Source of the DNA: Escherichia coli
Lineage (GTDB): Bacteria > Pseudomonadota > Gammaproteobacteria > Enterobacterales > Enterobacteriaceae
NCBI RefSeq assembly: GCF_002854065.1
Contig: NZ_CP024147.1
Reading direction: 5' to 3' (one strand)
DNA length: 64,000 bases
Shown: one piece after another, positions 23,766 through 54,745 of the stretch
Position numbering within the stretch: position 1 is the stretch's first letter
Layout of the letters: each line of letters starts with the position of its first letter
The notes under the pieces: model-generated
The model's database searches: none
What the model saw: only the letters and a program-made list of their open reading frames with translations
What the model was told of the DNA's origin: nothing
Position numbers and translations under genes: made by a program

Positions 23766-23837
23766 GATGCAAATTGCCGGGTAGGACGCTGACGTGTCTT
23801 ATCCAGGCGACAAAAACACATGCTTCCCAAACAAAAG

Positions 23838-23872
23838 AAAAAAGGCCAGCCTCGCTTGAGACTGGCCTTTCT
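23838..23872 (-). terminator. rpoS intrinsic terminator
   Basis: Minus strand: GGCCAGTCTCAAGCGAGGCTGGCC hairpin followed by TTTTTTCTTTTG. Confidence 0.5.
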
Positions 23873-28631: not shown

Positions 28632-29107
28632 TTTGTTGCCTTAATGAGTAGCGCCACCGCTTCACAGGCAATCCCTTCCCCACGTCCGGTAAATCCAAGT
28701 TTTTCCGTAGTAGTGGCTTTCACGTTAACATCATCCATATGGCAGCCGAGATCTTCGGCAATAAACACGCGCATTTGTGGAATGTGCGGCAACATCTTCG
28801 GTGCCTGAGCGATGATAGTGACATCGACGTTGCCAAGGGTATAACCCTTCGCCTGAATACGACGCCAGGCTTCGCGTAGCAGCTCGCGGCTGTCGGCACC
28901 TTTAAATGCCGGATCGGTATCCGGGAACAGCTTGCCGATATCCCCCAGCGCCGCCGCGCCAAGCAATGCATCGGTCAACGCATGGAGCGCCACGTCGCCA
29001 TCAGAATGCGCCAGCAATCCTTTTTCGTAAGGAATGCGTACGCCACCAATGATAATTGGGCCTTCACCGCCAAAGGCGTGTACGTCAAAACCGTGTCCAA
29101 TTCGCAT
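28628..29107 (-). CDS. ispF: 2-C-methyl-D-erythritol 2,4-cyclodiphosphate synthase
   Basis: 159-aa ORF starting [14 protein letters not shown]. Confidence 0.9.
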
Positions 29108-29817
29108 TATGTATTCTCCTGATGGATGGTTCGGGTGAGGTAAAACTCGGCCAGTGCCAAATCCTCCGGGCGCGTGACTTTAATGTTATCCGCACGGCCT
29201 TCGACCAACTGAGGATGGAATCCGCAATATTCCAGCGCCGAGGCTTCGTCGGTAATAGTCGCGCCTTCATTTAGAGCGCGCGTCAGACAGTCATGTAACA
29301 GCTCACGAGGGAAAAATTGCGGCGTCAGCGCGTGCCATAAGCCGTTGCGATCAACGGTATGAGCAATGGCATTTTTGCCCGGTTCGGCACGTTTCATAGT
29401 ATCGCGCACTGGTGCGGCGAGGATCCCCCCCGTGCGGCTGGTTTCGCTCAACGCCAACAATCGCGCCAGGTCATCCTGATGCAGACAAGGACGAGCGGCG
29501 TCATGCACCAATACCCACTGCGCGTCGCCAGCGGCTTTCAAACCTGCCAGCACGGAATCGGCACGCTCATCACCGCCATCTACAACGGTGATTTGCGGAT
29601 GATTCGCCAGAGGAAGTTGTGCAAAACGGCTATCGCCAGGACTTATGGCAATGACGACACGTTTCACCCGGGGATGCGCCAGCAGCGCATGCACCGAGTG
29701 TTCAAGAATGGTTTGATTACCGATTGAGAGATATTGCTTAGGACATTCCGTTTGCATTCGACGGCCAAATCCGGCCGCCGGAACCACGGCGCAAACATCC
29801 AAATGAGTGGTTGCCAT
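29107..29817 (-). CDS. ispD: 2-C-methyl-D-erythritol 4-phosphate cytidylyltransferase
   Basis: 236-aa ORF with [11 protein letters not shown] motif. Confidence 0.9.
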
Positions 29818-29835
29818 GTTAATTCCCGGGCTGAT

Positions 29836-30147
29836 TTATCGATTGTTTTGCCCCGCAGACTGTGCGCGCTTCGACGCGTCAGGTACCAGACGATAAAAAG
29901 TTTCGCCCGGCCTGGTCATGCTGAGTTCATTACGCGCACGCTCTTCGAGCGCCTCCTGGCCGCCATTGAGATCGTCAATTTCGGCAAAAAGTTGATCGTT
30001 TCGCGCTTTAAGTTTCGCGTTTGTAGCTTGCTGTGCCGCCACATCATCATTGACGCGGGTATAGTCATGTATACCGTTCTTACCGAACCACAGCGAATAC
30101 TGTAGCCAGACCAGAATAGCCAGCAACAGCAGCGTTAGTTTACCCAT
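29836..30147 (-). CDS. ftsB: Cell division protein FtsB
   Basis: 103-aa ORF, N-terminal TM helix plus coiled coil. Confidence 0.9.
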
Positions 30148-33656: not shown

Positions 33657-33907
33657 AACCGTTCCTTTGCAATACCGCTATTTTCTTGCCATCAGATGTT
33701 TCGACTATAGGGAGCGTAAGAGAACGAATGAAATTACCAATTAGAATGAGTAGTTCCTTAACGGAATAACGATTTGGCAAAGCTAATATCAAAAAGTGCT
33801 TAAGGCACCGGATTTCGGGCGTTTAGGAAGATTTGAAATTGTTTTAGCGCAGCGGCAGTTTCATACTATGGCGGTAAAAAAATTTGCATGGTATTTAAGG
33901 ACTCACT

Positions 33908-34945
33908 ATGTTTTCCGCATTGCGCCACCGTACCGCTGCCCTGGCGCTCGGCGTATGCTTTATTCTCCCCGTACACGCCTCGTCACCTAAACCTGGCGAT
34001 TTTGCTAATACCCAGGCACGACATATTGCTACTTTCTTTCCGGGACGCATGACCGGAACTCCTGCAGAAATGTTATCTGCCGATTATATTCGCCAACAGT
34101 TTCAGCAAATGGGTTATCGCAGTGATATTCGGACATTTAATAGTCGGTATATTTATACCGCCCGCGATAATCGCAAGAGCTGGCATAACGTGACGGGAAG
34201 TACGGTGATTGCCGCTCATGAAGGCAAAGCGCCGCAGCAGATCATCATTATGGCGCATCTGGATACTTACGCCCCGCTGAGCGATGCTGACGCCGATGCC
34301 AATCTCGGCGGGCTGACGTTACAAGGAATGGATGATAACGCCGCAGGTTTAGGTGTCATGCTGGAATTGGCAGAACGCCTGAAAAATACGCCTACCGAGT
34401 ATGGTATTCGATTTGTGGCGACCAGCGGCGAAGAGGAAGGGAAATTAGGCGCTGAGAATTTACTCAAGCGGATGAGTGACACCGAAAAGAAAAATACGCT
34501 GCTGGTGATTAATCTCGATAACTTAATTGTTGGCGATAAATTGTATTTCAACAGCGGTGTAAAAACCCCTGAAGCAGTAAGGAAATTAACGCGCGACAGG
34601 GCGCTGGCAATTGCGCGTAGTCATGGAATTGCCGCAACGACCAATCCGGGTTTGAATAAAAATTATCCGAAAGGCACTGGGTGTTGTAATGACGCAGAAA
34701 TATTCGACAAAGCGGGCATTGCTGTACTTTCGGTGGAAGCGACTAACTGGAATCTTGGGAATAAGGATGGTTATCAGCAACGCGCAAAAACAGCCGCATT
34801 CCCTGCGGGAAATAGCTGGCATGACGTAAGACTGGATAATCAACAGCATATTGATAAGGCACTTCCAGGAAGAATAGAACGTCGCTGCCGTGACGTTATG
34901 CGGATAATGCTACCACTGGTGAAGGAGCTGGCGAAGGCGTCTTGA
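33908..34945 (+). CDS. iap: Alkaline phosphatase isozyme conversion aminopeptidase
   Basis: 345-aa ORF with signal peptide and M28 peptidase features. Confidence 0.85.
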   Translation: MFSALRHRTAALALGVCFILPVHASSPKPGDFANTQARHIATFFPGRMTGTPAEMLSADYIRQQFQQMGYRSDIRTFNSRYIYTARDNRKSWHNVTGSTVIAAHEGKAPQQIIIMAHLDTYAPLSDADADANLGGLTLQGMDDNAAGLGVMLELAERLKNTPTEYGIRFVATSGEEEGKLGAENLLKRMSDTEKKNTLLVINLDNLIVGDKLYFNSGVKTPEAVRKLTRDRALAIARSHGIAATTNPGLNKNYPKGTGCCNDAEIFDKAGIAVLSVEATNWNLGNKDGYQQRAKTAAFPAGNSWHDVRLDNQQHIDKALPGRIERRCRDVMRIMLPLVKELAKAS

Positions 34946-35070
34946 TGGGTTTGAAATGATGACTCCCGTGCCTGCAGGAAATCAATGCCACCTGAAACAG
35001 AGAATAAAAAAGGGTGCAGGAGGCCAAACCATCACAATTCAATACGCGGGGTTTTACCCCCGCGTGGTGG

Positions 35071-35223
35071 CTACTTCTTCGATTCGTAAGCGAGAACTGC
35101 CTTAAACTCCATACCACGCTCTCTGATACTCAACTCACATAACGAGTCGCCTACCATGAGCGTGAATCCCAGTACTGTACAACACAGTACTATGATTGCC
35201 ACAAGGGCATATTTTGTTAGCAT
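35071..35223 (-). CDS. Hok-family type I toxin (hokX-like), intact 50-aa ORF
   Basis: [50 protein letters not shown]: TM helix plus conserved SLCEL...LAYES C-terminus; GGGAGG SD 6 nt upstream. Confidence 0.75.
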
Positions 35224-35430
35224 GTCTTGCCTCCCTGCAAAGAAGAGACTAACATCCGAATTGCTACGTTCGAACGCGAGCCTCAGGTTGATAGAAATAT
35301 CGCCTGGGGCTTTTGTCCATCTGGAACCTCGCGAATGCTTAACGCCAGACAGCCTCAAGCACCCGACGCCATTCTATACCTGATAATTCTTCCAGCGGCG
35401 TTCACGTTTAAAATCAGGAATGCTGCTCGC

Positions 35431-35470
35431 AAAATAAAAACGCCCCCATCATTTCTGACAGAGGCGTTTA
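35431..35470 (-). terminator. Likely cysJIH operon terminator
   Basis: Minus strand hairpin (aacgcctc...gggggcgtt) followed by TTTTTATTTT just downstream of cysH stop. Confidence 0.4.
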
Positions 35471-35486
35471 ATTTATCCGGCAATAT

Positions 35487-36221
35487 TTACCCTTCGTGTA
35501 ACCCACATTCCCTTTTTAAGCCAAAGAAACGCGTTTCTTCTTCCGCCATGCCGGGTTCCCATTTACGGGTTGTATGGGTATCGCCCACCGATAAATATCC
35601 TTCGTCCCATAATGGGTGATATTTCAGGCCATGTTTTTGCAGGTACTGATAAATAGTTCGGTTATCCCAGTCGATAATCGGCAGCACTTTAAATACGCCA
35701 CGCTGAATTGCCAGCACCGGTAAATTGGCGCGGCTGCCGGATTGTTCACGGCGCAGGCCAGCAAACCAGGTTTGCGCATTCAGTTCTTTTAGCGCCCGGT
35801 TCATCGGTTCGACTTTGTTGATGTCATTGTACTTTTCAATGCCTTCAACGCCCTGTTCCCACAGTTTTCCGTAGCGTGCTTCCTGCCAGGCTGCGCTTTC
35901 GGTAGCACGGTACACTTTCAGGTTGAGCTTGAGTTTGTCCGTTAACTCGTCAATAAAGCGGTAGGTTTCCGGGAACAAGTAACCGGTATCGGTGAGGATC
36001 ACTGGAATATCCGGGCGAATCTGATTCACCAGATGCAGGCTCACCGCCGCCTGAATGCCGAAGCTGGAAGAAAGCACATATTCACCGGGCAGATTATCCA
36101 GCGCCCAGGCTACGCGGCCTTCAGCGTCCAGTTTTTCCAGTTGGGCGTTAGTTTCCGCCAGCGCCAGAATGCGATCTACCTTCGGCAGTTCGTTCAGGGC
36201 GTTTAGATCGAGTTTGGACAT
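35487..36221 (-). CDS. cysH: Phosphoadenosine phosphosulfate reductase
   Basis: Start at [12 protein letters not shown] inside longer ORF; 244 aa; C-terminal ECGLH motif. Confidence 0.9.
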
Positions 36222-36242
36222 AGATTCCTCACTGTTTGCCTT

Positions 36243-36278
36243 GCCTGATGCGACGCTCACGCGTCTTATCAGGCCTAC
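36243..36278. repeat. REP (repetitive extragenic palindrome) element
   Basis: gcctgatgcgacgctcacgcgtcttatcaggcctac in cysH-cysI spacer. Confidence 0.5.
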
Positions 36279-36294
36279 AAGACCGGGCTGATGG

Positions 36295-38007
36295 TTAATC
36301 CCACAAATCGCGCGCCGGATCGAGCACCGGGCGAATGATGCCCGCACGCACCGTAAAGTCGCCGAAGCCTTCACCCGCTTCGCGCTCTTTCGCCCAGCGC
36401 CCTATCAGTTCATCAAGCGACGCCAGGATTTCCGGCTCGGTGATGTTTTCTTTATACATCCGTGGGATACGTGTCCCAATGCGGTTGCCGCCAAGATGCA
36501 GGTTGTAGCGACCCGGCGCTTTACCCACCAGGCCCACTTCCGCCAGCATCGCGCGACCACAACCGTTCGGGCAGCCTGTTACACGCATCACGATATGCTC
36601 ATCGCTGACACCATGTTTCGCCATTAAATTATCGATGTTGTCGATAAAAGACGGCAGGAAACGCTCCGCTTCCGCCATCGCCAGCGGGCAAGTCGGGAAT
36701 GACACGCAGGCCATTGAGTTTTCACGCTGCGGCGTGACGGCATTCATTAACCCGCTCTCTTTGGCGATCCTCTCGATCTTCGCTTTCTCACTTTCCGGCA
36801 CACCGGCGATGATCAGATTCTGGTTCGCCGTAATGCGGAAATCACCTTTGTGGATCTTTGCGATCTCCAGCAGGCCGGTTTTCAGCGGACGCCCCGGATA
36901 ATCAAGGATGCGACCATTTTCGATAAACAGCGTCAGGTGCCAGTTATCATCAATGCCCTTAACCCAGCCAATACGATCTCCGCGTCCGGTAAACTCATAC
37001 GGGCGAATCGGCTCGAATTTGATCCCCGCGCGACGTTCCACTTCCGCTTTAAATGTCTCAACACCCACGCGCTCCAGCGTGTATTTGGTTTTGGCATTTT
37101 TACGATCGGTACGGTTACCCCAATCGCGCTGAGTCGTCACGACGGCTTCCGCCACCGCCAGGGTATGCTCCAGCGGCAGATAACCAAACTCGCTCGCCGT
37201 GCGGGCGTAGGTTTTCTTATTACCGTGTTCGATGGAAAGCCCGCCGCCCACCAGCAGGTTAAAGCCTACCAGCTTGCCGTTTTCGGCGATTGCCACGAAG
37301 TTCATGTCGTTGGCGTGCAGATCGATATCGTTCTGTGGCGGGATCACTACCGTGGTTTTGAATTTACGCGGCAGGTAGGTCTGGCCGAGGATCGGTTCTT
37401 CATCAGTGGTGGCGACTTTTTCCTGATCGAGCCAGATCTCCGCATACGCGCGGGTACGCGGCAGCAGATGTTCCGAGATTTTCTTCGCCCACTCGTACGC
37501 TTCTGCGTGCAGCTGCGACTCGTAAGGGTTCGAGGTGCAGAGTACGTTACGGTTCATGTCGTTAGCGGTCGCCAGCGCATCAAGACCGACCGAGTGCAGC
37601 ATCTGGTGCACCGGTTTGACGTTCTTTTTCAGAATGCCGTGGAACTGGAATGTCTGGCGGTTGGTCAGGCGAATGCTGCCATAGATGGTGTTTTCACCGG
37701 CAAATTTATCGATCGCCTGCCACTGTTTGGTGGTGATAACTCCACCCGGCAGACGGCAGCGCAACAGCATCGCATGGCGCGGCTCCAGCTTCTGTTCAGC
37801 ACGTTCGGCGCGGATGTCGCGGTCATCCTGCTGATACATGCCGTGGAAGCGGATCAGCAGGAAGTTGTCGCCCTTAAAGCCGCCGGTCAGACCGTCGTTT
37901 AAATCTTCCGCAATGGTGCCGCGCAGGTAGTTGCTTTCAAGCTTCATGCGCTCGGCGTCTGTCAGTTTTCCTTCGACCACTAAAGGCCCTGGATGTTTTT
38001 CGCTCAT
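36295..38007 (-). CDS. cysI: Sulfite reductase hemoprotein beta subunit
   Basis: 570-aa ORF, siroheme/4Fe-4S Cys cluster. Confidence 0.9.
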
Positions 38008-39806
38008 TAGTAGACATCTCGCTGATAACGGCGCTCTACGCGCAGCTCACTTAAAAATTCATCCGCCGCTTCGGTGTCCATACCACCAAATTCGGCAATC
38101 ACTTCCAGAAGTGCCTGCTCAACGTCTTTCGCCATGCGATTAGCGTCGCCGCAGACATAAATGTGGGCACCGTCATTGATCCAGCGCCACAGCTCCGCGC
38201 CCTGTTCGCGTAGTTTGTCTTGTACGTAAACTTTTTCTTTTTGATCGCGCGACCAGGCGAGATCGATACGTGTCAGCACACCCTCTTTGACGTAGCGCTG
38301 CCACTCCACCTGGTAGAGGAAATCTTCCGTAAAATGCGGGTTGCCAAAGAACAGCCAGTTTTTACCCGGTGCTTCATCGGCAGCACGTTGCTGCATAAAG
38401 GCGCGGAACGGCGCGATACCGGTGCCTGGGCCAATCATAATCACCGGGGTTTCTGGATTGGCTGGTAGGCGGAAGTTATCGTTATGTTCGATAAATACGC
38501 GGAGTTCGCCCTCTTCTTCCACGCGGTCCGCAAGGAAGCTGGAGGCCCCCCCGGCACGGGCGCGGCCTTCCACGTCGTAACGCACCACACCAACGGTGAC
38601 GTGTACTTCGTTCTCGACTTCCGCCTGCGAGGAGGCAATGGAATAGAGACGCGGCGTCAGCGGGCGCAGCAGATTAATTAGCGCTTCGGCATCAAGCTGT
38701 GCCGGGGAGAAACGCACCATGTCAACAATCGGCGTCGTCGCGGCGTAATGCTGTAACTTCGCTTTATCGCCCACCAGCGGCAGCAGTGTTTCACTGCGGG
38801 TAAGCGTGGCATAATTCTCAACAATGTTGGCGGTGTTGACGGTCAGTTCGAAGTGCCACTGTAGCGCTTCGTTCAGAGGCAACGTTTTGCCCTCGACGGT
38901 GACAGGTTCATCGCCTTTCAGCCACAGCAGTTCGACAAGTTCTTTCACCAGTGCCGGATCGTTCTGATACCAGACACCCAGCGCGTCACCCGGCTGGTAA
39001 CGCAGGCCCGAGTCACCTAAGTCAATTTCGATATGGCGAACGTCTTTTTCAGAGTTACGCCCGGTAATTTTCTGGTTAACCGAAAGGCTCGCTACCAGCG
39101 GCGCGTCTTTGCTGTACGGGCTGGTGTGGATTTCATTTACCACGCCAGTAGCGACGGATTGCGAAGGTGCCGCGACAGGCGCACGCGATTTAAGCGCATC
39201 AACCACGCGGGCGCGCCACTCGCTGGCAGCAGCCTGGTATTCAACGTCGGCGTCGACACGGTCGAGCAGGCGTTCACCGCCCAGTTCCGCCAGCTTGCTG
39301 TCGAAATCTTTCCCGGACTGGCAGAAAAATTCATAAGAACTATCGCCGAGGCTAAACACGGCAAAAGCGGTATTTTCCAGCTTCGGCGCTTTTTTGGAGA
39401 ACAGGAACTTATGCAGCGCGACGGCTTCTTCCGGCGGTTCCCCTTCTCCTTGCGTTGACGTCACCACGATAAGCAGTTTTTCGCTGGCGATTTGTTTGAA
39501 TTTATAGTCGCCCGCGTTCACCAGCTTAACGTTCAGTTTTGCCGTCAATAAATCATCGCGTAATGCTTCAGCAACCCGGCGCGCATTGCCGGTTTGCGAA
39601 GCAGAGATAATAGTTATACCCGGCATTTCTGCGGCTGGCGCTGGCGTCGCTGCAAGCGCAGCAGGCTGCTGATTGAGCACGCCCCAGAAATAGCCAGAAA
39701 CCCAGGCAAGCTGGGGGGGAGTTAAATCGGTCGTGGCCGCCTGAAGGCGTGCCAGTTGCTCCGGGTTCAACGGAAGCAACGCGGAAGGTGGGACCTGTGT
39801 CGTCAT
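38007..39806 (-). CDS. cysJ: Sulfite reductase flavoprotein alpha subunit
   Basis: 599-aa ORF with flavodoxin and FAD/NADPH domains. Confidence 0.9.
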
Positions 39807-40120
39807 GCGTCGTTATGTTCCAGTAAGCAAAGCTGTTTCTGCGCCCTGTCAGCGCCCATAAAACAGAAGAGAAGGTAAGGTTAACGGGGTGAACGGTGTG
39901 GATTAAAGACGGGATAGCGATAACTAATAACCAAATCGACTAACCTGTTTTAGCAATAGTCTTTAACAACAAAATAGATTAACCAACCTATTGAAAAAAA
40001 ATGAATTTAGCCAATCATTAAGATAAATCAGCGATTTTGCGCAACAAAGTCGTTTTAGATAATGCGAAAAAAGAGCCTTTCCGGTACTCTACGGCGGTTT
40101 TATCGTCCTGTAGAGAAATT

Positions 40121-40486
40121 ATGATGTCCACCACGTTATTTAAAGATTTCACCTTCGAAGCCGCTCACCGCTTACCACACGTCCCGGAAGGGCATAAATG
40201 TGGTCGCCTGCACGGGCATTCCTTTATGGTGCGACTGGAAATTACCGGGGAAGTCGATCCGCATACGGGCTGGATTATCGATTTCGCTGAACTAAAAGCG
40301 GCGTTTAAGCCAACTTATGAGCGCCTCGATCACCATTATCTCAATGATATTCCAGGTCTGGAAAACCCAACTAGCGAAGTTTTAGCAAAATGGATTTGGG
40401 ATCAGGTTAAACCCGTTGTGCCGCTGTTAAGTGCGGTGATGGTAAAAGAAACCTGCACCGCTGGTTGTATCTATCGCGGCGAATGA
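40121..40486 (+). CDS. queD: 6-carboxy-5,6,7,8-tetrahydropterin synthase
   Basis: Start at [18 protein letters not shown] inside longer ORF; 121 aa. Confidence 0.9.
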
Positions 40487-40563
40487 TAAGAGTGTGGCGG
40501 CGGTCAATTTCCCTTAAGTAACGCTATGTTAGGGTGTTGTGTTCAGGATATCTGGGGCATGAC

Positions 40564-41835
40564 ATGGAAGACGACTGCGACATTATTATTATTGGTGCCG
40601 GTATTGCAGGCACCGCTTGCGCGTTACGCTGCGCGCGAGCGGGTTTATCCGTTTTGTTACTGGAACGCGCTGAAATCCCCGGCAGCAAAAATCTTTCCGG
40701 CGGGCGGTTATATACCCATGCACTCGCGGAACTCCTCCCTCAATTTCATCTGACCGCGCCTCTTGAACGACGCATCACTCACGAAAGCCTTTCCCTGTTA
40801 ACGCCGGATGGCGCAACGACGTTTTCCAGCTTACAGCCCGGCGGTGAATCCTGGAGTGTATTACGTGCACGGTTCGATCCGTGGCTGGTTGCCGAAGCCG
40901 AAAAAGAAGGTGTCGAATGCATCCCTGGTGCGACGGTGGATGCACTGTATGAAGAAAACGGCAGGGTGTGTGGTGTCATTTGTGGTGACGATATTCTCCG
41001 CGCCCGTTATGTGGTGCTGGCAGAAGGTGCCAACAGCGTCCTGGCTGAACGTCACGGGTTAGTGACTCGTCCTGCTGGCGAAGCGATGGCGTTGGGGATC
41101 AAAGAAGTGCTGTCGCTGGAAACATCCGCTATTGAAGAACGTTTTCATCTGGAGAATAACGAAGGCGCAGCGTTGCTGTTCAGCGGCGGAATCTGTGATG
41201 ACTTACCCGGCGGCGCATTTCTTTATACTAATCAACAAACGCTCTCGTTAGGGATTGTTTGCCCACTCTCTTCCCTTACGCAAAGTCGTGTTCCGGCAAG
41301 CGAGCTGCTTGCTCGCTTTAAAACGCATCCGGCAGTGCGCCCGCTTATCAAAAACACGGAATCACTGGAGTATGGTGCGCATCTGGTGCCAGAAGGTGGC
41401 TTGCACAGTATGCCGGTACAATACGCCGGTAACGGCTGGCTGCTGGTGGGCGATGCGTTGCGCAGTTGCGTCAATACCGGAATTTCTGTGCGCGGCATGG
41501 ATACGGCGCTAACTGGCGCGCAGGCGGCGGCACAAACACTGATAAGCGCCTGCCAGCACCGCGAGCCGCAAAATCTGTTTCCGCTTTATCATCACAACGT
41601 AGAGCGCAGCCTACTGTGGGATGTTCTACAGCGTTATCAGCATGTTCCGGCGCTTTTGCAACGCCCGGGATGGTACCGTACGTGGCCTGCGTTAATGCAG
41701 GATATTTCCCGCGATTTATGGGATCAGGGTGATAAACCTGTTCCACCGCTGCGCCAGTTACTCTGGCGTCATTTACGTCGTCATGGCTTGTGGAATCTGG
41801 CGGGCGATGTTATCAGGAGTGTTCGATGTCTGTAG
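40564..41835 (+). CDS. ygcN: FAD-dependent oxidoreductase, FixC/ETF-QO-like
   Basis: Start at MEDDCDIIIIGAGIAGTACA (Rossmann GxGxxG); 423 aa. Confidence 0.85.
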   Translation: MEDDCDIIIIGAGIAGTACALRCARAGLSVLLLERAEIPGSKNLSGGRLYTHALAELLPQFHLTAPLERRITHESLSLLTPDGATTFSSLQPGGESWSVLRARFDPWLVAEAEKEGVECIPGATVDALYEENGRVCGVICGDDILRARYVVLAEGANSVLAERHGLVTRPAGEAMALGIKEVLSLETSAIEERFHLENNEGAALLFSGGICDDLPGGAFLYTNQQTLSLGIVCPLSSLTQSRVPASELLARFKTHPAVRPLIKNTESLEYGAHLVPEGGLHSMPVQYAGNGWLLVGDALRSCVNTGISVRGMDTALTGAQAAAQTLISACQHREPQNLFPLYHHNVERSLLWDVLQRYQHVPALLQRPGWYRTWPALMQDISRDLWDQGDKPVPPLRQLLWRHLRRHGLWNLAGDVIRSVRCL

Positions 41836-42086
41836 CCCGTAATCTCTGGCGCGCTGCTGATGCGCCGCATATTGTTCCGGCTGACTCCGTTGAGCGCCAG
41901 ACGGCAGAACGATTAATTAACGCCTGCCCGGCAGGTCTTTTTGCGCTCACGCCGGAAGGCGACTTGCGTGTTGATTATCGCGGTTGCCTTGAGTGTGGCA
42001 CCTGCCGTTTGCTGTGCGACGAATCAACACTACAACAGTGGCGCTATCCACCTTCCGGATTCGGCATCACCTACCGCTTTGGATAA
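41826..42086 (+). CDS. ygcO: Ferredoxin-like protein, FixX-like
   Basis: 86 aa with CLECGTCRLLC motif; overlaps ygcN end. Confidence 0.8.
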   Translation: MSVARNLWRAADAPHIVPADSVERQTAERLINACPAGLFALTPEGDLRVDYRGCLECGTCRLLCDESTLQQWRYPPSGFGITYRFG

Positions 42087-42102
42087 ATAATAAGGATAAT
42101 TT

Positions 42103-42678
42103 ATGCCCCTCTTACACCTGCTCCGCCAGAATCCGGTGATTGCTGCCGTTAAAGATAATGCCAGCCTGCAACTGGCAATCCATTCTGAATGCCAATTTAT
42201 TTCCGTGTTGTACGGCAATATCTGCACCATCAGTAATATCGTTAAAAAGATTAAGAACGCCGGGAAATATGCTTTTATTCATGTTGATTTGCTGGAAGGC
42301 GCGTCAAATAAAGAAGTCGTGATTCAGTTTTTGAAACTGGTGACCGAGGCGGACGGCATTATCAGTACCAAAGCCTCAATGTTGAAAGCGGCAAGAGCGG
42401 AAGGTTTTTTCTGTATTCATCGCCTGTTTATTGTTGATTCAATTTCGTTTCACAACATTGATAAGCAAGTTGCGCAATCGAATCCGGATTGTATTGAGAT
42501 CCTGCCAGGCTGTATGCCCAAAGTGCTGGGCTGGGTGACGGAAAAAATCCGCCAACCGCTGATTGCTGGCGGGCTGGTATGCGATGAAGAAGATGCGCGT
42601 AATGCGATTAACGCGGGTGTCGTGGCGCTTTCCACCACGAATACCGGAGTCTGGACGTTAGCGAAAAAATTGCTTTGA
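42103..42678 (+). CDS. ygcP: GlpP-family antiterminator-like regulator
   Basis: 191-aa ORF, GlpP/G3P-antiterminator family. Confidence 0.8.
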   Translation: MPLLHLLRQNPVIAAVKDNASLQLAIHSECQFISVLYGNICTISNIVKKIKNAGKYAFIHVDLLEGASNKEVVIQFLKLVTEADGIISTKASMLKAARAEGFFCIHRLFIVDSISFHNIDKQVAQSNPDCIEILPGCMPKVLGWVTEKIRQPLIAGGLVCDEEDARNAINAGVVALSTTNTGVWTLAKKLL

Positions 42679-42712
42679 CGGGATAATCGTAACCAATTGA
42701 ATTTGGTTTGAT

Positions 42713-42781
42713 TTGTAGGCCGCACGCCACATCCGACATTCAGCGCCTGATGCGACGCTTAACACGTCTTATCAGGCCTAC
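42713..42781. repeat. REP element(s) between convergent ygcP and ygcQ
   Basis: tgtaggccg... and gcctgatgcgacgcttaacacgtcttatcaggcctac. Confidence 0.5.
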
Positions 42782-42825
42782 AGGTCCCCAGTCCAGAACC
42801 GTAGGCAGGATCATCCGGCAACACG

Positions 42826-43686
42826 TTATTGGCAATCTGCGTGAATGTTTGTCACCAGTGCCTCCAGCACCACTTTCCAGTCATCAACCACGCCAACATC
42901 TGCCTGTGAAAATACCGCTGCGCTGGCGTCATGATTAATCGCCACCACAAACTTGCTATTGCGTACGCCCGCCATTAACGCTGCTGCGCCAGAAGCGCCA
43001 ACAACAATACACACCTCAGGTGCCAGCAGATGTCCGGAAATACCAATCACTTTTTCAGCATCAACGCCACCGTTCATCACTCGCGCCCGACTGTAGCCCA
43101 CTTCGGCTCCCAGCTTTTCTGCCAGCATAGCGATTTCCTGGTTATCTGCCTCTCCGCCCTGCCCCACCACCAACACCCGTCTGGCCTCAGCTAATGGGTC
43201 GCGGGTAACATTTTTCAGGTTCTCTATACTAACCAGCCAGTCCGGAAGCGCACCTGGGACTATGTTCAGTTGCTGCATACCAGAGGGCAAAGTGGCATTT
43301 TTATCTGCTCCCGCCTGGCGCGCCAGGGAAAGACATAGCGGGCGTTTTTCTGTTTGCAGCGTCGCCGTTAGCGCATTTCCCCAGTGGGATTTGCGCACGC
43401 TTACGATTGGAATCTCTAACGAAGTCACCTGGCAGATGCTTGCACCATGTAAACGCCAGGCCAGCCGAGTCGACAGTTCATCGCCAAACGTTCCCGGCGG
43501 AAAGAGAACAACGTTCGCAGGCGTTCGCTGCCACTGTTCCACCAGCGCATCCAGCACCTGTTCCACCACTACGGGCTGTGGTTCTATTTGCCAGTGCGCC
43601 AGGGTACAACCGCTGAAATCCTGCGCCGCCAGCCAGCCCGCTAATGCGGCATTCTCCTGATTTATTGTCACAATTGCGATATTCAT
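42826..43686 (-). CDS. ygcQ: Electron transfer flavoprotein alpha-subunit-like (FixB-like)
   Basis: Start at MNIAIVTINQ inside longer ORF; 286 aa. Confidence 0.8.
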   Translation of the reverse strand: MNIAIVTINQENAALAGWLAAQDFSGCTLAHWQIEPQPVVVEQVLDALVEQWQRTPANVVLFPPGTFGDELSTRLAWRLHGASICQVTSLEIPIVSVRKSHWGNALTATLQTEKRPLCLSLARQAGADKNATLPSGMQQLNIVPGALPDWLVSIENLKNVTRDPLAEARRVLVVGQGGEADNQEIAMLAEKLGAEVGYSRARVMNGGVDAEKVIGISGHLLAPEVCIVVGASGAAALMAGVRNSKFVVAINHDASAAVFSQADVGVVDDWKVVLEALVTNIHADCQ

Positions 43687-49803: not shown

Positions 49804-51282
49804 ATGTCGAAGAAATACATCATAGGGATTGATGGCGGAAGTCAGAGCACAAAAGTGGTGATGTACGATCTGGAAGGTAACGTGGTTTGCGAAGGCAAAG
49901 GTTTATTGCAGCCGATGCACACGCCAGATGCCGATACCGCAGAACATCCTGACGACGATTTATGGGCATCATTATGTTTTGCCGGTCACGATTTGATGAG
50001 TCAGTTTGCCGGGAATAAAGAAGATATTGTCGGTATTGGTCTGGGATCCATCCGTTGCTGCCGTGCGTTATTGAAAGCCGATGGCACGCCTGCTGCGCCG
50101 TTGATTAGCTGGCAGGATGCACGCGTAACGCGTCCCTACGAACACACTAATCCTGACGTGGCCTATGTCACCTCTTTTTCGGGTTATCTGACGCATCGCT
50201 TAACCGGCGAGTTTAAAGACAATATCGCCAACTATTTTGGTCAGTGGCCGGTGGATTATAAGACCTGGGCATGGAGTGAAGATGCTGCGGTAATGGATAA
50301 GTTTAATATCCCCCGTCATATGCTGTTTGATGTGCAAATGCCTGGCACCGTCCTCGGACATATCACACCACAAGCCGCACTGGCGACACATTTCCCGGCA
50401 GGACTGCCGGTTGTTTGTACCACCAGTGATAAACCGGTAGAAGCTCTGGGGGCCGGATTACTGGATGATGAAACGGCGGTAATTTCTCTTGGCACCTACA
50501 TCGCGCTGATGATGAACGGCAAAGCACTGCCGAAAGATCCGGTGGCGTACTGGCCGATTATGTCTTCTATTCCGCAAACATTGCTGTATGAAGGTTACGG
50601 TATCCGTAAAGGCATGTGGACGGTGAGCTGGCTGCGCGACATGCTAGGCGAGTCGTTAATTCAGGATGCCAGGGCGCAGGATCTTTCACCGGAAGATTTA
50701 CTCAACAAAAAAGCTTCTTGTGTGCCGCCAGACTGTAATGGTCTGATGACGGTGCTGGACTGGCTGACCAATCCGTGGGAACCGTACAAACGCGGGATTA
50801 TGATCGGCTTTGATTCCAGCATGGATTACGCATGGATATATCGTTCGATACTGGAAAGCGTGGCGCTGACGCTGAAGAACAATTACGACAATATGTGTAA
50901 TGAAATGAATCACTTTGCGAAGCATGTGATCATTACTGGCGGCGGTTCGAACAGCGATCTGTTTATGCAGATTTTTGCCGACGTGTTCAACCTTCCGGCA
51001 CGACGTAACGCCATTAACGGTTGTGCAAGTCTGGGGGCAGCGATTAATACCGCGGTAGGTCTGGGGCTATACCCGGATTACGCAACGGCTGTCGATAAAA
51101 TGGTTCGCGTGAAAGATATCTTTATACCGATTGAGAGCAATGCCAAACGCTACGACGCGATGAATAAAGGCATTTTCAAAGACCTAACCAAACATACTGA
51201 TGTGATTCTGAAAAAATCGTATGAAGTGATGCATGGGGAATTGGGAAATGCGGATTCGATCCAGAGCTGGTCGAATGCGTAA
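49804..51282 (+). CDS. ygcE: FGGY-family carbohydrate kinase
   Basis: 492-aa ORF starting MSKKYIIGIDGGSQSTK. Confidence 0.85.
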   Translation: MSKKYIIGIDGGSQSTKVVMYDLEGNVVCEGKGLLQPMHTPDADTAEHPDDDLWASLCFAGHDLMSQFAGNKEDIVGIGLGSIRCCRALLKADGTPAAPLISWQDARVTRPYEHTNPDVAYVTSFSGYLTHRLTGEFKDNIANYFGQWPVDYKTWAWSEDAAVMDKFNIPRHMLFDVQMPGTVLGHITPQAALATHFPAGLPVVCTTSDKPVEALGAGLLDDETAVISLGTYIALMMNGKALPKDPVAYWPIMSSIPQTLLYEGYGIRKGMWTVSWLRDMLGESLIQDARAQDLSPEDLLNKKASCVPPDCNGLMTVLDWLTNPWEPYKRGIMIGFDSSMDYAWIYRSILESVALTLKNNYDNMCNEMNHFAKHVIITGGGSNSDLFMQIFADVFNLPARRNAINGCASLGAAINTAVGLGLYPDYATAVDKMVRVKDIFIPIESNAKRYDAMNKGIFKDLTKHTDVILKKSYEVMHGELGNADSIQSWSNA

Positions 51283-51329
51283 GTGAGGAAGGCCGGGCGG
51301 GAAACAGCACGGCCTGAACATACCTGAAT

Positions 51330-51500
51330 GGTTATCCCCGCTGACGCGGGGAACTCTCTAAACATAACCTATTATTAATTAATGATTTTTTAAGCCAGTC
51401 ACAATCTACCAACTTTACAGTATCACACAAACAACACATCCATCATGTTAAAGAGCACTTAACCCATTGATTAAAAAGGTAAATATTTAAAATAACTCTA
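51330..51500 (-). CDS. placeholder
   Basis: placeholder. Confidence 0.
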
Positions 51501-51694
51501 TACAAACTAAAATCTACCAAACTTTACCGCAATAATTTTCACTCCAGCGAAAAATTAACGCCACAGAATTTGTAGAGAATGATAATGATTAGTTCAGGAT
51601 GGGCAAAATGGAGGTTTTTCAGAGACGACAAAGAATATAAATGAGTAGAAGTCTTTACAGGTTCCACCCATTTATAACGCTTATAAATGTTTAA

Positions 51695-52366
51695 TCAGGC
51701 AATATTTAAATATTTATGGGTTTGCATCGACAAACGCCAATTACGCGCAATGCAGGTTTCAATGCACAAACGTGTGGCATCATCCTTTTGGCTAATCGGC
51801 TGCAGTGCAATGACTCGCGGTTTATCATCGGTCAGCGTCGCCAAAAGTTCATCCAGTGCTTCAATATCACGTACGCGTCCCACTGGATGCTTGATTTCGT
51901 TGGCTCGCTCCAGTGCCTGTGACAACACTTCATAGCCGCCGCGCATGTTCAGCTTTGGCGATACGGTAACCCAGGTATTCGGTGTACAGCGTACTTCATG
52001 AGTACCACTGGTTTCGATCTGGCAGCTAAAACCGTTCTTTTCGAGCAGGTCAGTCAGTGGTAGCAAATCATGAATGCAAGGCTCACCACCCGTAATCACC
52101 ACATGCCGCGCGGTGTATCCCTGGCGACCAATGACAGCCAGCAAGTCTTCACTGCTCGCCGCCCCCCACTTATCACTCTCTTTGGTCTTCGCCAGAATGC
52201 TGAAAAGGGAGACTTCCCGATCCTCAAGCTTTTCCCAGGTGTGTTTGGTGTCGCACCAGGCACAGCCAACCGGGCATCCCTGTAAACGAATAAAAATGGC
52301 GGGGACGCCGGTAAAGTAACCCTCACCTTGCAGGGTCTGGAACATCTCGTTAATCGGGTACTGCAT
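51695..52366 (-). CDS. queE: 7-carboxy-7-deazaguanine synthase (radical SAM)
   Basis: 223-aa ORF with CxxxCxxC-type radical-SAM cysteine cluster. Confidence 0.9.
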   Translation of the reverse strand: MQYPINEMFQTLQGEGYFTGVPAIFIRLQGCPVGCAWCDTKHTWEKLEDREVSLFSILAKTKESDKWGAASSEDLLAVIGRQGYTARHVVITGGEPCIHDLLPLTDLLEKNGFSCQIETSGTHEVRCTPNTWVTVSPKLNMRGGYEVLSQALERANEIKHPVGRVRDIEALDELLATLTDDKPRVIALQPISQKDDATRLCIETCIARNWRLSMQTHKYLNIA

Positions 52367-52520
52367 AGCATTCTCTGTGAAGTGGATAATTGTTAATTAT
52401 TGCAGATCCTGCCGCAACAATCATGTCTTATTAACATTCTGTTACAGGCAGGTTTAAGGCAAAAAGTGCATTAGATCATAAAGAATAAAATGAAGCGGCG
52501 TATTATGTTTTAAGGAATTA

Positions 52521-52692
52521 ATGAAAAAGGATTTAAACATGCTCAGGATATTCATCGTAATTATATTTATTTTCAATTTATCAGGCTGTGGATATAACGA
52601 TATTCAAACCTATGATGAGCAGGTTAACGCCTCCTGGTCTGAGGTATTAAATCAATATCAACGTCGCGCCGATCTTATTCCTAATCTTGTCG
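52521..52692 (+). pseudogene. LemA-family lipoprotein gene, 5' fragment truncated by IS1
   Basis: AAGGA RBS; MKKDLNMLRIFIVIIFIFNLSGCGYN... with LSGC lipobox; reading frame runs into IS1 left end after 57 codons. Confidence 0.6.
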
Positions 52693-52747
52693 GGTGATGC
52701 TGCCAACTTACTGATTTAGTGTATGATGGTGTTTTTGAGGTGCTCCA

Positions 52748-53023
52748 GTGGCTTCTGTTTCTATCAGCTGTCCCTCCTGTTCAGCTACTGACGGGGTGGT
52801 GCGTAACGGCAAAAGCACTGCCGGACATCAGCGCTATCTCTGCTCTCACTGCCGTAAAACATGGCAACTGCAGTTCACTTACACCGCTTCTCAACCCGGT
52901 ACGCACCAGAAAATCATTGATATGGCCATGAATGGCGTTGGATGCCGGGCAACCGCCCGCATTATGGGCGTTGGCCTCAACACGATTTTCCGCCATTTAA
53001 AAAACTCAGGCCGCAGTCGGTAA
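52748..53023 (+). CDS. insA: IS1 InsA
   Basis: 91 aa [21 protein letters not shown]..., GTG start. Confidence 0.9.
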
Positions 53024-53445
53024 CCTCGCGCATACAGCCGGGCAGTGACGTCATCGTCTGCGCGGAAATGGACGAACAGTGGGGATACGTCGGGGCTAAA
53101 TCGCGCCAGCGCTGGCTGTTTTACGCGTATGACAGGCTCCGGAAGACGGTTGTTGCGCACGTATTCGGTGAACGCACTATGGCGACGCTGGGGCGTCTTA
53201 TGAGCCTGCTGTCACCCTTTGACGTGGTGATATGGATGACGGATGGCTGGCCGCTGTATGAATCCCGCCTGAAGGGAAAGCTGCACGTAATCAGCAAGCG
53301 ATATACGCAGCGAATTGAGCGGCATAACCTGAATCTGAGGCAGCACCTGGCACGGCTGGGACGGAAGTCGCTGTCGTTCTCAAAATCGGTGGAGCTGCAT
53401 GACAAAGTCATCGGGCATTATCTGAACATAAAACACTATCAATAA
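52942..53445 (+). CDS. insB: IS1 InsB (transposase C-terminal part, expressed as InsAB' by -1 frameshift)
   Basis: 167-aa ORF in -1 frame relative to insA, recognised IS1 InsB. Confidence 0.85.
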
Positions 53446-53462
53446 GTTGGAGTCATTACCTG

Positions 53463-53846
53463 ATGCTGGCCCCAAAAAATAAAAACGCTAAAGTGAAAAA
53501 ACAAAAGAAGACTCCGCAGGTTCGTGAATCAGGACGAAATTCATTGTTTGTCGTGATGCTGATAATTATTGTGGGATGGTGCCTGGTGTTCGCCAGTATT
53601 AAAGATATTGCATTCATCTCAACAATTATTGGGTTAATTGATCATTTTATCGGTCCAATAACCATTGCTGGCATCGTTCTGCTGATCATTGTGGCCAAAT
53701 TTACTGGCAATCTTAAGCTGGGATCAGGAGAAAAAAGCAACAGGAAAACGGGGAATCGTAATGCTCACTCTCGCTCTTCGTCGAGAAATTCTTTCCGCGG
53801 TGGTGGCGGTTCTTCAGGAGGCGGCGGTTCATCCGGCCGTTGGTGA
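53463..53846 (+). pseudogene. 3' fragment of a TPM-domain/YgcG-like membrane protein gene, lacking its 5' end
   Basis: Begins immediately after IS1 right end; two TM helices and GGGGSSGGGGSSGRW tail paralogous to ygcG C-terminus. Confidence 0.5.
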
Positions 53847-53851
53847 TCGTA

Positions 53852-54745
53852 ATGCGCTTAATCTTTATTCTATTCACTTTGTGGTGTCTTCCTGGGCTTG
53901 CCCAGCAAATTGCTGTGCCAGAACTGCGCCAACAGGTGACCGATATTACTGGTACGTTAAGCACTTCTGAACAACAATCACTGACACAGCAACTGCAGGA
54001 TATTACACATAAAACACGGGCGCAGGTCGCTGTATTAGTAGTGCCGTCTACCGGAGACGATTCCATTGAACAATATGCTACAAGGGTTTTTGATAGCTGG
54101 AAACTGGGAGATAAGCAGAGAAACGATGGTATTTTACTTCTGGTTGCCTGGGAGGATCATGCTGTTCGTATTGAGGTTGGCTACGGGCTGGAAGGGGTGG
54201 TTACCAACCTGCAAGCGGCGAAGATTATCAGGGATATATTGATCCCTGCCTTCAAAAGTGATGACCTGATGGGTGGATTAACACTGGCAAGCGAAAATAT
54301 CGGCGCACTTCTGTTGAATGGTGAATTACCGGAAGACAGGGGGGATTATTACAGTATCAATCCCCCTATTCCATTATCGCTTGCTGTAATTATATTGCTG
54401 GCGGTACTTTCATATTTTATTGTTTTTACCGATCCGTCGAATTTACCCTGGATCACTCTCACTGGCGCCATTTACGGGATGGTATTCCTCTATGTTGCCG
54501 AGCCAGGACCATGGACCAATTTAATCGTTGCCTGCGGTATGTTAACGCCTTTTGCGATCGTACCACTGGTTATTTTTTGGCTTATCGTCAATAAAAAGCT
54601 ACGCGCCAAATACAAAAAACTCAGTAAAGAAAGAGCTACAAGAAAAGGTTCTTCTTCATCCTCTTCCGGTGGAGGCTCAAGTGGCGGCGGATTTAGCGGC
54701 GGGGGCGGTTCTTCTGGAGGTGGCGGCGCATCCGGCCGCTGGTAA
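53852..54745 (+). CDS. ygcG: TPM-domain protein YgcG with signal peptide and Gly/Ser-rich C-terminal tail
   Basis: Start at MRLIFILFTLWCLPGLAQQ; TPM domain, TM helices, ends GGGSSGGGFSGGGGSSGGGGASGRW. Confidence 0.75.
   Translation: MRLIFILFTLWCLPGLAQQIAVPELRQQVTDITGTLSTSEQQSLTQQLQDITHKTRAQVAVLVVPSTGDDSIEQYATRVFDSWKLGDKQRNDGILLLVAWEDHAVRIEVGYGLEGVVTNLQAAKIIRDILIPAFKSDDLMGGLTLASENIGALLLNGELPEDRGDYYSINPPIPLSLAVIILLAVLSYFIVFTDPSNLPWITLTGAIYGMVFLYVAEPGPWTNLIVACGMLTPFAIVPLVIFWLIVNKKLRAKYKKLSKERATRKGSSSSSSGGGSSGGGFSGGGGSSGGGGASGRW

Follow-up and report, generated by a model that had tools for sequence, protein, structure and literature searches.

What are the two similar palindromes in the cysI-cysH and ygcP-ygcQ spacers of an Escherichia coli chromosome, and what might they do there? 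We addressed this question in a 64,000-nt stretch of contig NZ_CP024147.1 (assembly GCF_002854065.1), hereafter the window, for which an initial annotation had proposed canonical repetitive extragenic palindromic (REP) sequences at these two intergenic sites. The copy at 36243-36278 is referred to as site 1 and that at 42745-42781 as site 2; the finding thus spans 36243-42781, from the first copy to the second, and the 6.4 kb separating them (cysI, cysJ, queD, ygcN, ygcO, and ygcP) lies outside the feature. With high confidence, we identify both copies as E. coli REPs of the long Z type, site 1 being a solitary unit and site 2 the intact unit of a cluster resembling a bacterial interspersed mosaic element (BIME). 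Knowledge of REPs dates from the early 1980s, and the two copies described here are ordinary examples of this already known kind of element.

The strings quoted in the initial annotation were found exactly at both sites: GCCTGATGCGACGCT at 36243-36257 and 42745-42759, and CGTCTTATCAGGCCTAC at 36262-36278 and 42765-42781. For the latter, the 64-kb window contained 2 matches against 0.10 expected, and this number was reached in 0 of 100 shuffles. The units measure 36 nt (site 1) and 37 nt (site 2), and share one orientation (+ strand head-first, - strand GTAG-first). We scored all 45-nt windows across the 64 kb by local alignment against the three REP consensus sequences (Y, short Z, and long Z) printed in Durrant et al. 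2024 (PMC11208160), of which the long Z-type is GCCTGATGCGACGCTGGCGCGTCTTATCAGGCCTAC. The two best scores in the window fell on site 1 (32) and site 2 (28), against a background mean of 7.6 with a standard deviation of 1.6. Identity to the long Z consensus was 34 of 36 aligned positions at site 1, where the two differences lie in the loop, and 33 of 37 at site 2, confirming the proposed match to the REP consensus. No other full-length REP was detected in the 64 kb by blastn-short, Hamming scans, or local alignment. The window is a segment of the E. coli chromosome, colinear with strain PapRG-06-5, the closest genome found (~98.8%), and with K-12 MG1655 (97.6% over the shared part). The K-12 sequence contains both REPs, in the stretches 2888313-2888386 and 2894772-2894918, with one extra T within the REP at site 1 and two transitions, in the upper stem and the loop, at site 2.

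Two further sequences in the window resemble long Z REPs. The first, tgccgggtaggacgctgacgtgtcttatccaggcgac at 23775-23810, looks like a decayed long Z-type REP (consensus score 18, background fraction 0.002); it is intergenic, between a MarR-family regulator gene and the rpoS 3′ end, and a hairpin with a T-run follows just beyond it at ~23843-23870. This is the polymorphic rpoS side, which here carries hydroxyarylic acid decarboxylase genes. The second, GCGACGCTGGGGCGTCTTATGAGCCT at 53182-53208, lies in the insB coding sequence of an IS1 copy and matches the long Z REP, over its centre and tail, at 24 of 27 positions. We rejected its REP-centre match (53182-53201) as a REP, since it is inside IS1 coding sequence and has neither the outer left arm nor the GTAG; the resemblance is probably due to chance and a source of false REP matches.

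The internal anatomy of the two copies is that of E. coli REPs, which Corneloup et al. 2021 (PMC8266576) define by a GTAG, an imperfect palindrome, and a conserved AA-GC bulge; the same source gives a stem-loop palindrome size of 20-50 nt in REPs and ~600 REPs per K-12 genome. Read on the GTAG-first strand, both copies consist of the GTAG, a 7-bp lower stem (GCCTGAT/ATCAGGC), an internal loop with AA opposite GC, a 5-bp upper stem, and a 4-5-nt loop. Site 1 reads GTAG-GCCTGAT-AA-GACGC-GTGA-GCGTC-GC-ATCAGGC(A) in the sense of the cysJIH mRNA (- strand). The GTAG lies directly 5′ of the palindrome in both copies (- strand GTAGGCCTGAT... at 36278-36268 and 42781-42771). The predicted fold was (((((((..(((((....)))))..))))))), with AA facing GC, both as RNA and as single-stranded DNA (ssDNA). 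For site 1, predicted stability was -21.9 kcal/mol as RNA (z -4.3) and -12.9 kcal/mol as ssDNA (z -4.6); the corresponding values for site 2 were -18.4 to -21.0 kcal/mol (z ~-4.3) and -10.7 kcal/mol (z -3.6), all z-scores being relative to dinucleotide shuffles. The site 1 hairpin was kept in the minimum free energy and centroid folds of the 151-nt mRNA context. In the predicted mRNA fold, the flanks CTTG...CAAG (36238-36241 and 36279-36282) also add 4 bp to the site 1 palindrome.

Judged at the sequence level, all REP-defining features open to testing appear in both copies, including the extragenic location, as each lies between annotated genes. The long form is presumably the one called 'Z1' by Gilson and Bachellier. 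Because z1 is 29 nt and z2 37 nt in PMC8266576, we use the name 'long Z' throughout. The GTAG-first REP strand is bound and cleaved by TnpA_REP (REP-associated tyrosine transposase, RAYT), a domesticated Y1 transposase that is thought to disseminate REPs (PMC8266576), and the CT dinucleotides found immediately 5′ of GTAG at both sites would fit its published cleavage sites (PMC8266576).

The gene contexts initially given, a cysH-cysI spacer and convergent ygcP and ygcQ genes, agreed with the open reading frames (ORFs) and the annotation (Table 1). At site 1, cysI and cysH are - strand genes of the cysJIH operon, with the cysI stop at 36295-36297 and the cysH start codon at 36219-36221, and the REP takes up nearly the whole of the 73-nt spacer. 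In the mRNA sense, the REP starts 16 nt past the cysI stop and ends 20 nt ahead of the cysH ATG, and the Shine-Dalgarno sequence GAGGAA is located between the REP and this ATG. At site 2, ygcP ends at 42678 on the + strand and ygcQ at 42826 on the - strand. Here the initial annotation had correctly reported the intact REP and had overlooked that it is the centre of a small cluster with two probable decayed, inverted flanking units. The unit at 42715-42738 is inverted relative to the central REP, head-to-head, and is conserved in K-12. The unit at 42801-42820 is tail-to-tail with the central REP, forms an inverted-repeat pair with its tail, has a weak hairpin, and on the - strand starts 5 nt past the ygcQ stop. 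The pattern GTAGGC N1-25 CATCCGRCA matched the window twice against 0.01 expected, exactly at these two flanks. Since this two-part pattern was devised after viewing the sequence, we grade the flanking units as probable decayed REP remnants only.

Table 1. Coordinates of the REP units, their spacers, and insertion sequence targets in the window.
Feature	Position	Strand	Basis
Site 1, solitary long Z REP	36243-36278 (listed 36242..36278)	-	Exact motif matches, consensus, hairpin
cysI-cysH intercistronic spacer, 73 nt	36222..36294	-	ORFs, annotation, sequence
IS621 target 11-mer ATCAGGCCTAC, core CT 36275-36276	36268..36278	+	Exact match; target from PMC11208160
ygcP-ygcQ convergent intergenic spacer, 147 nt, probably three alternating units	42679..42825	.	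ORFs, annotation, inverted repeats
Site 2, intact long Z REP, central unit	42745..42781	-	Exact motif matches, score 28, hairpin
Left flanking unit, probable decayed Y-type remnant GTAGGCCG...CATCCGACA, internally deleted	42715..42738	+	Two-part pattern
Right flanking unit, probable decayed Y-type remnant GTAGGCAGGAT-CATCCGGCA	42801..42820	+	Two-part pattern, inverted-repeat pair
Loop tetranucleotide TTAA (TTGA in K-12-type alleles), IS1397 insertion point elsewhere	42759..42762	.	Strain comparison

The description of these sequences as common chromosomal repeats was borne out across the species. A 42-nt query around the site 1 REP matched at least 40 places per genome in 5425 of 5426 complete E. 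coli genomes, and an objection to REP identity on the ground of a non-repeated sequence is therefore ruled out. The locus itself is stable at site 1, where the REP was uninterrupted with both flanks in 5423 of the 5426 genomes, and the REP is essentially fixed in E. coli. At site 2, the REP was uninterrupted in 4813 of the 5299 E. coli genomes having the locus.

Further evidence came from genomes in which these sites carry insertion sequences. PMC1525189 describes IS1397 and IS621 as the two REP-specific insertion sequences of E. coli, and ATCAGGCCTAC is the natural target of the IS621 bridge-RNA recombinase, with a CT core (PMC11208160). This 11-mer is exact in both window REPs. In strain 7.1994/NIST0056 (NZ_CP116241), IS621 has inserted in the cysI-cysH spacer, precisely at the tail of the REP and with CT on either side, the junctions (slashes) reading ...ATCAGGC-CT/TGTATTATCC...ACAGTAT/CT-ACAAGACC. 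At site 2, the junction of IS1397 with the REP loop, accompanied by a TTGA duplication of 4 bp, was found in 290 of 5426 genomes; in strain KY 1497 the junctions are gcctgatgcgacgcTTGA/tgaactgcacccc...ggggttcagttca/TTGAcgcgtcttatcagg. REP-targeting insertion sequences thus use the two copies as specific landing sites, with IS621 entering at the tail (ATCAGGC-CT-AC) and IS1397 in the loop. Two unrelated REP-recognizing transposition systems have therefore used these copies, which provides independent functional support for the REP assignment. In the accessible portions of the Durrant et al. supplementary target lists, which we searched with flanking sequences, neither site was present and only other REP loci appeared; likewise, the accessible portions of the RepRanger and Durrant et al. 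supplements contained no mention of cysH, cysI, ygcP, or ygcQ.

We then considered what the two copies would do at the RNA level. Transcribed REPs withstand 3′-to-5′ exonucleases and often coincide with the steady-state 3′ ends of transcripts terminated by Rho (PMC6061677). When transcribed, sites 1 and 2 would each form a stable G+C-rich hairpin without a U-tract, which would not terminate transcription and would present a barrier to 3′-to-5′ exonucleases. At site 1, such a barrier would give the cysJ-cysI segment upstream of it greater stability than cysH. At site 2, the processed 3′ ends of both convergent transcripts would be set and protected by it after downstream, probably Rho-dependent, termination. 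We regard an exonuclease barrier as the most likely RNA-level role of these copies, because no U-run, terminator, promoter, or integration host factor (IHF) site accompanies them and the site 1 hairpin is predicted to form on its own in the mRNA context. The role in mRNA stability suggested initially is accordingly a plausible one, given how stable the hairpin is and how other REPs are reported to behave.

The searches behind this view also bear on a different reading, in which both hairpins are intrinsic (Rho-independent) terminators. They are indeed stable, G+C-rich, and downstream of stop codons, and the convergent genes around site 2 are a setting in which terminators are expected. However, the terminator scan was empty in both spacers (0 sites in 36100-36400 and 0 in 42600-42900), and no T/U-run follows either hairpin on either strand. 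Site 1 is moreover inside an operon, upstream of cysH, in a spacer with no promoter-like site for cysH, and each genome has at least 40 occurrences of this sequence. We therefore consider intrinsic termination very improbable. A sigma-70 promoter scan found nothing in either spacer, and of the five window matches to the IHF consensus (WATCAANNNNTTR), none is in either spacer.

The position of site 1 just downstream of the cysI stop raised a further function, additional to REP identity and not an alternative to it, in which the REP would stall ribosomes as they terminate and so reduce CysI synthesis. Liang, Rudd and Deutscher 2015, as summarised in PMC12306157, report this effect for REPs whose distance to the stop codon is <16 nt. 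At cysI, 16 nt separate the stop from GTAG and 20 nt separate it from the first paired base, just beyond the 15-nt limit given in that summary, and stalling is for this reason probably inapplicable to cysI. At site 2, the unit that lies 5 nt past the ygcQ stop is a decayed remnant with a weak hairpin. Overall, we judge a stalling effect unlikely.

A small RNA reading was also weighed, since Rfam model RF02564, the nucleoid-associated small RNA naRNA4 (REP325), matched at both sites. The matches scored 33.6, 27.6, and 24.9 bits, whereas the gathering threshold is 59.5, and the site 1 match spans only model positions 44-76, which correspond to one REP unit. Because naRNA4 derives from a REP cluster, these matches simply restate REP similarity. 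With no promoter in either spacer, it is highly improbable that sites 1 and 2 encode a small RNA of the naRNA4 type.

To place site 1 in a broader context, we took the cysH loci of 80 Enterobacteriaceae species, extracted the spacer from the cysI stop to the cysH start, and classified it roughly by motif. Spacer length ranged from 15 to 203 nt (median 96.5), the 203-nt spacer containing three units. E. coli-type REPs were found in 24 of the 80 spacers, Klebsiella/Enterobacter-type REPs (GCCCGGTGGCGC.../GTAGGCCGGGCA...) in 20, a Cedecea-type REP (GTAGGGTGGATAAGCG...) in 4, and mixed types in 2. The remainder carried boxC-like palindromes (CCCTCTCCCC...GGGGAGAGGG; 11 spacers) or other hairpins (9 spacers), or were empty at 15-35 nt (10 spacers, eight of them 15 nt, as with ccacgagaggtaatt in Enterobacter cloacae and ctacgagaggtaatt in Leclercia). 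Unit number differed within Escherichia, being 3 in E. albertii and the sampled lineage L005 (Z-Y-Z), 2 in L009 and L007, and 1 in E. coli. In the alignment, the single E. coli REP combines the left half of unit one with the right half of unit three. The E. coli copy thus appears to correspond to a collapsed Z-Y-Z array, that is, to an indel of ~100 nt bounded by direct REP copies. REPs mark the edges of such REP-bounded insertions and deletions between lineages, and the suggestion that these sequences are possible recombination elements holds up in this respect as well as through IS621 in site 1 and IS1397 in site 2.

The same survey argues against a reading in which the palindromes are locus-specific regulatory elements, such as sulfur-regulator operators, that resemble REPs by chance. 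Such an origin would account for a palindrome within a regulated operon. However, the same 36-37-nt sequence stands at two unrelated loci of the window and recurs at least 40 times in 5425 of the 5426 E. coli genomes, and at the cysI-cysH position other genera have the REP type of their own genome, or nothing. Among the alternatives weighed, we consider this the least probable, with next to no weight.

In 41 of the 80 species, the unit nearest cysH was GTAG-first in the mRNA sense, and its palindrome lay ~15-25 nt upstream of the cysH start beside an apparently homologous flank (…GGCAAAC(AG)(T)GAGG…). The palindrome sequence in this slot belonged to the host's own REP family (E. coli, Klebsiella/Enterobacter, or Cedecea type). 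When 20 of these 41, covering three REP families, were aligned, GTAG was invariant and 6 of 9 predicted stem pairs were kept via two-sided changes. We attribute this covariation mostly to differences between REP families, which co-evolve with their transposases, and do not take it as evidence of selection at cysI-cysH. The spacer may nevertheless be a long-lived Enterobacteriaceae 'REP slot', maintained by in-place concerted turnover or by selection for an uncoupling hairpin rather than by neutral reinsertion; we put this forward tentatively, and lean towards doubting it. If it were true, turnover would proceed by gene conversion or TnpA_REP-mediated replacement, or else the hairpin would serve to uncouple cysJI and cysH expression. 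The spacer as a recurrently occupied, fast-evolving REP slot is mildly interesting, and it fits long-standing ideas on BIME polymorphism and REP concerted evolution.

One pair of genomes showed a different exchange in this spacer. In the 69-nt spacers of Escherichia sp. E1V33, which has CysH 100% identical over the best segment, and of Pseudocitrobacter faecalis (L004 and L010), a boxC-like palindrome replaces the REP, with a different Shine-Dalgarno context (agaggtaatt). This points to replacement or recombination of the spacer separately from the genes on either side.

Several observations weigh against parts of the interpretation given above. For the RNA-level role, the literature search returned nothing on cysI, cysH, or cysJIH with REP and no transcript data for either site, and the 10 of 80 species with an empty spacer imply that the hairpin is not needed for the operon to work. 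For the cluster at site 2, the flanking units align weakly on their own: the unit at 42715-42738 has a 15-nt match to Y (background fraction 0.04), and the score of that at 42801-42820 is not significant (background fraction 0.24). For the identification itself, the NC_000913.3 record is without repeat_region features in this stretch.

The surroundings of the two sites contain other variable features. Downstream of cysH is a hokX/sokX type I toxin-antitoxin locus, in which 35208-35364 on the - strand matches the Rfam sok antitoxin RNA (RF01794, 105 bits, E 1e-23) beside a Hok/Gef-family ORF. K-12 homology begins only at window position 35221, on the sokX side. No type I-E cas operon adjoins cysH at ~33900-35500; in this position PapRG-06-5 has iap, hok, and cysH directly adjacent, whereas K-12 has cas3 and casA. 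The ~1.2-kb CRISPR array annotated in PapRG-06-5 (its locus 28875-30114) is absent from the window, and a tandem array search of 50000-54500 found none. An IS1 copy occupies 52693-53460, and relative to PapRG-06-5, ~2.1 kb with LemA and TPM-domain genes next to queE is missing at this IS1.

These results have some practical consequences. For genome annotation, these hairpins should not be labelled terminators, small RNA genes, or operators. Both REPs mark variable places in E. coli genomes, through IS621 or IS1397 insertion and through gain or loss of REP units, and both are native targets of the IS621 bridge recombinase. Site 1 is a clean natural intra-operon REP in a one-pathway operon, and could be used for testing REP effects on differential mRNA stability.

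Finally, we compared the two copies with known systems. They share with the E. coli long Z REP (~37 nt) its consensus, GTAG, AA/GC-bulged palindrome, extragenic location, and high copy number, and differ from it in nothing of substance beyond small allele differences. Site 2 is like a BIME in what are probably three units of alternating orientation with short linkers, but only its central unit is intact, the flanks being truncated and individually weak by alignment. A BIME comprises at least two units, whereas site 1 in E. coli is a solitary REP; true arrays of 2-3 units occur at this site in E. albertii and relatives. Unlike the IHF-binding BIME-1, or RIP (repetitive IHF-binding palindromic element), neither spacer has an IHF consensus. 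The likeness to naRNA4/REP325 (RF02564) lies in the REP unit sequence, and the difference in scores below the gathering threshold. As in other IS621 and IS1397 targets, natural insertions are found at the expected positions, IS621 at site 1 and IS1397 at site 2. The closest functional parallel to site 1 would be the intercistronic REPs of malE-malF and hisJ-hisQ (Higgins 1982; Newbury 1987, as cited in PMC12306157 and PMC6061677). Like these, the site 1 REP sits within a polycistronic operon, with a promoter-proximal gene on one side and a promoter-distal gene on the other, the classical layout in which the hairpin shields upstream mRNA from 3′ exonucleases, and by analogy it may exert the same effect in cysJIH.

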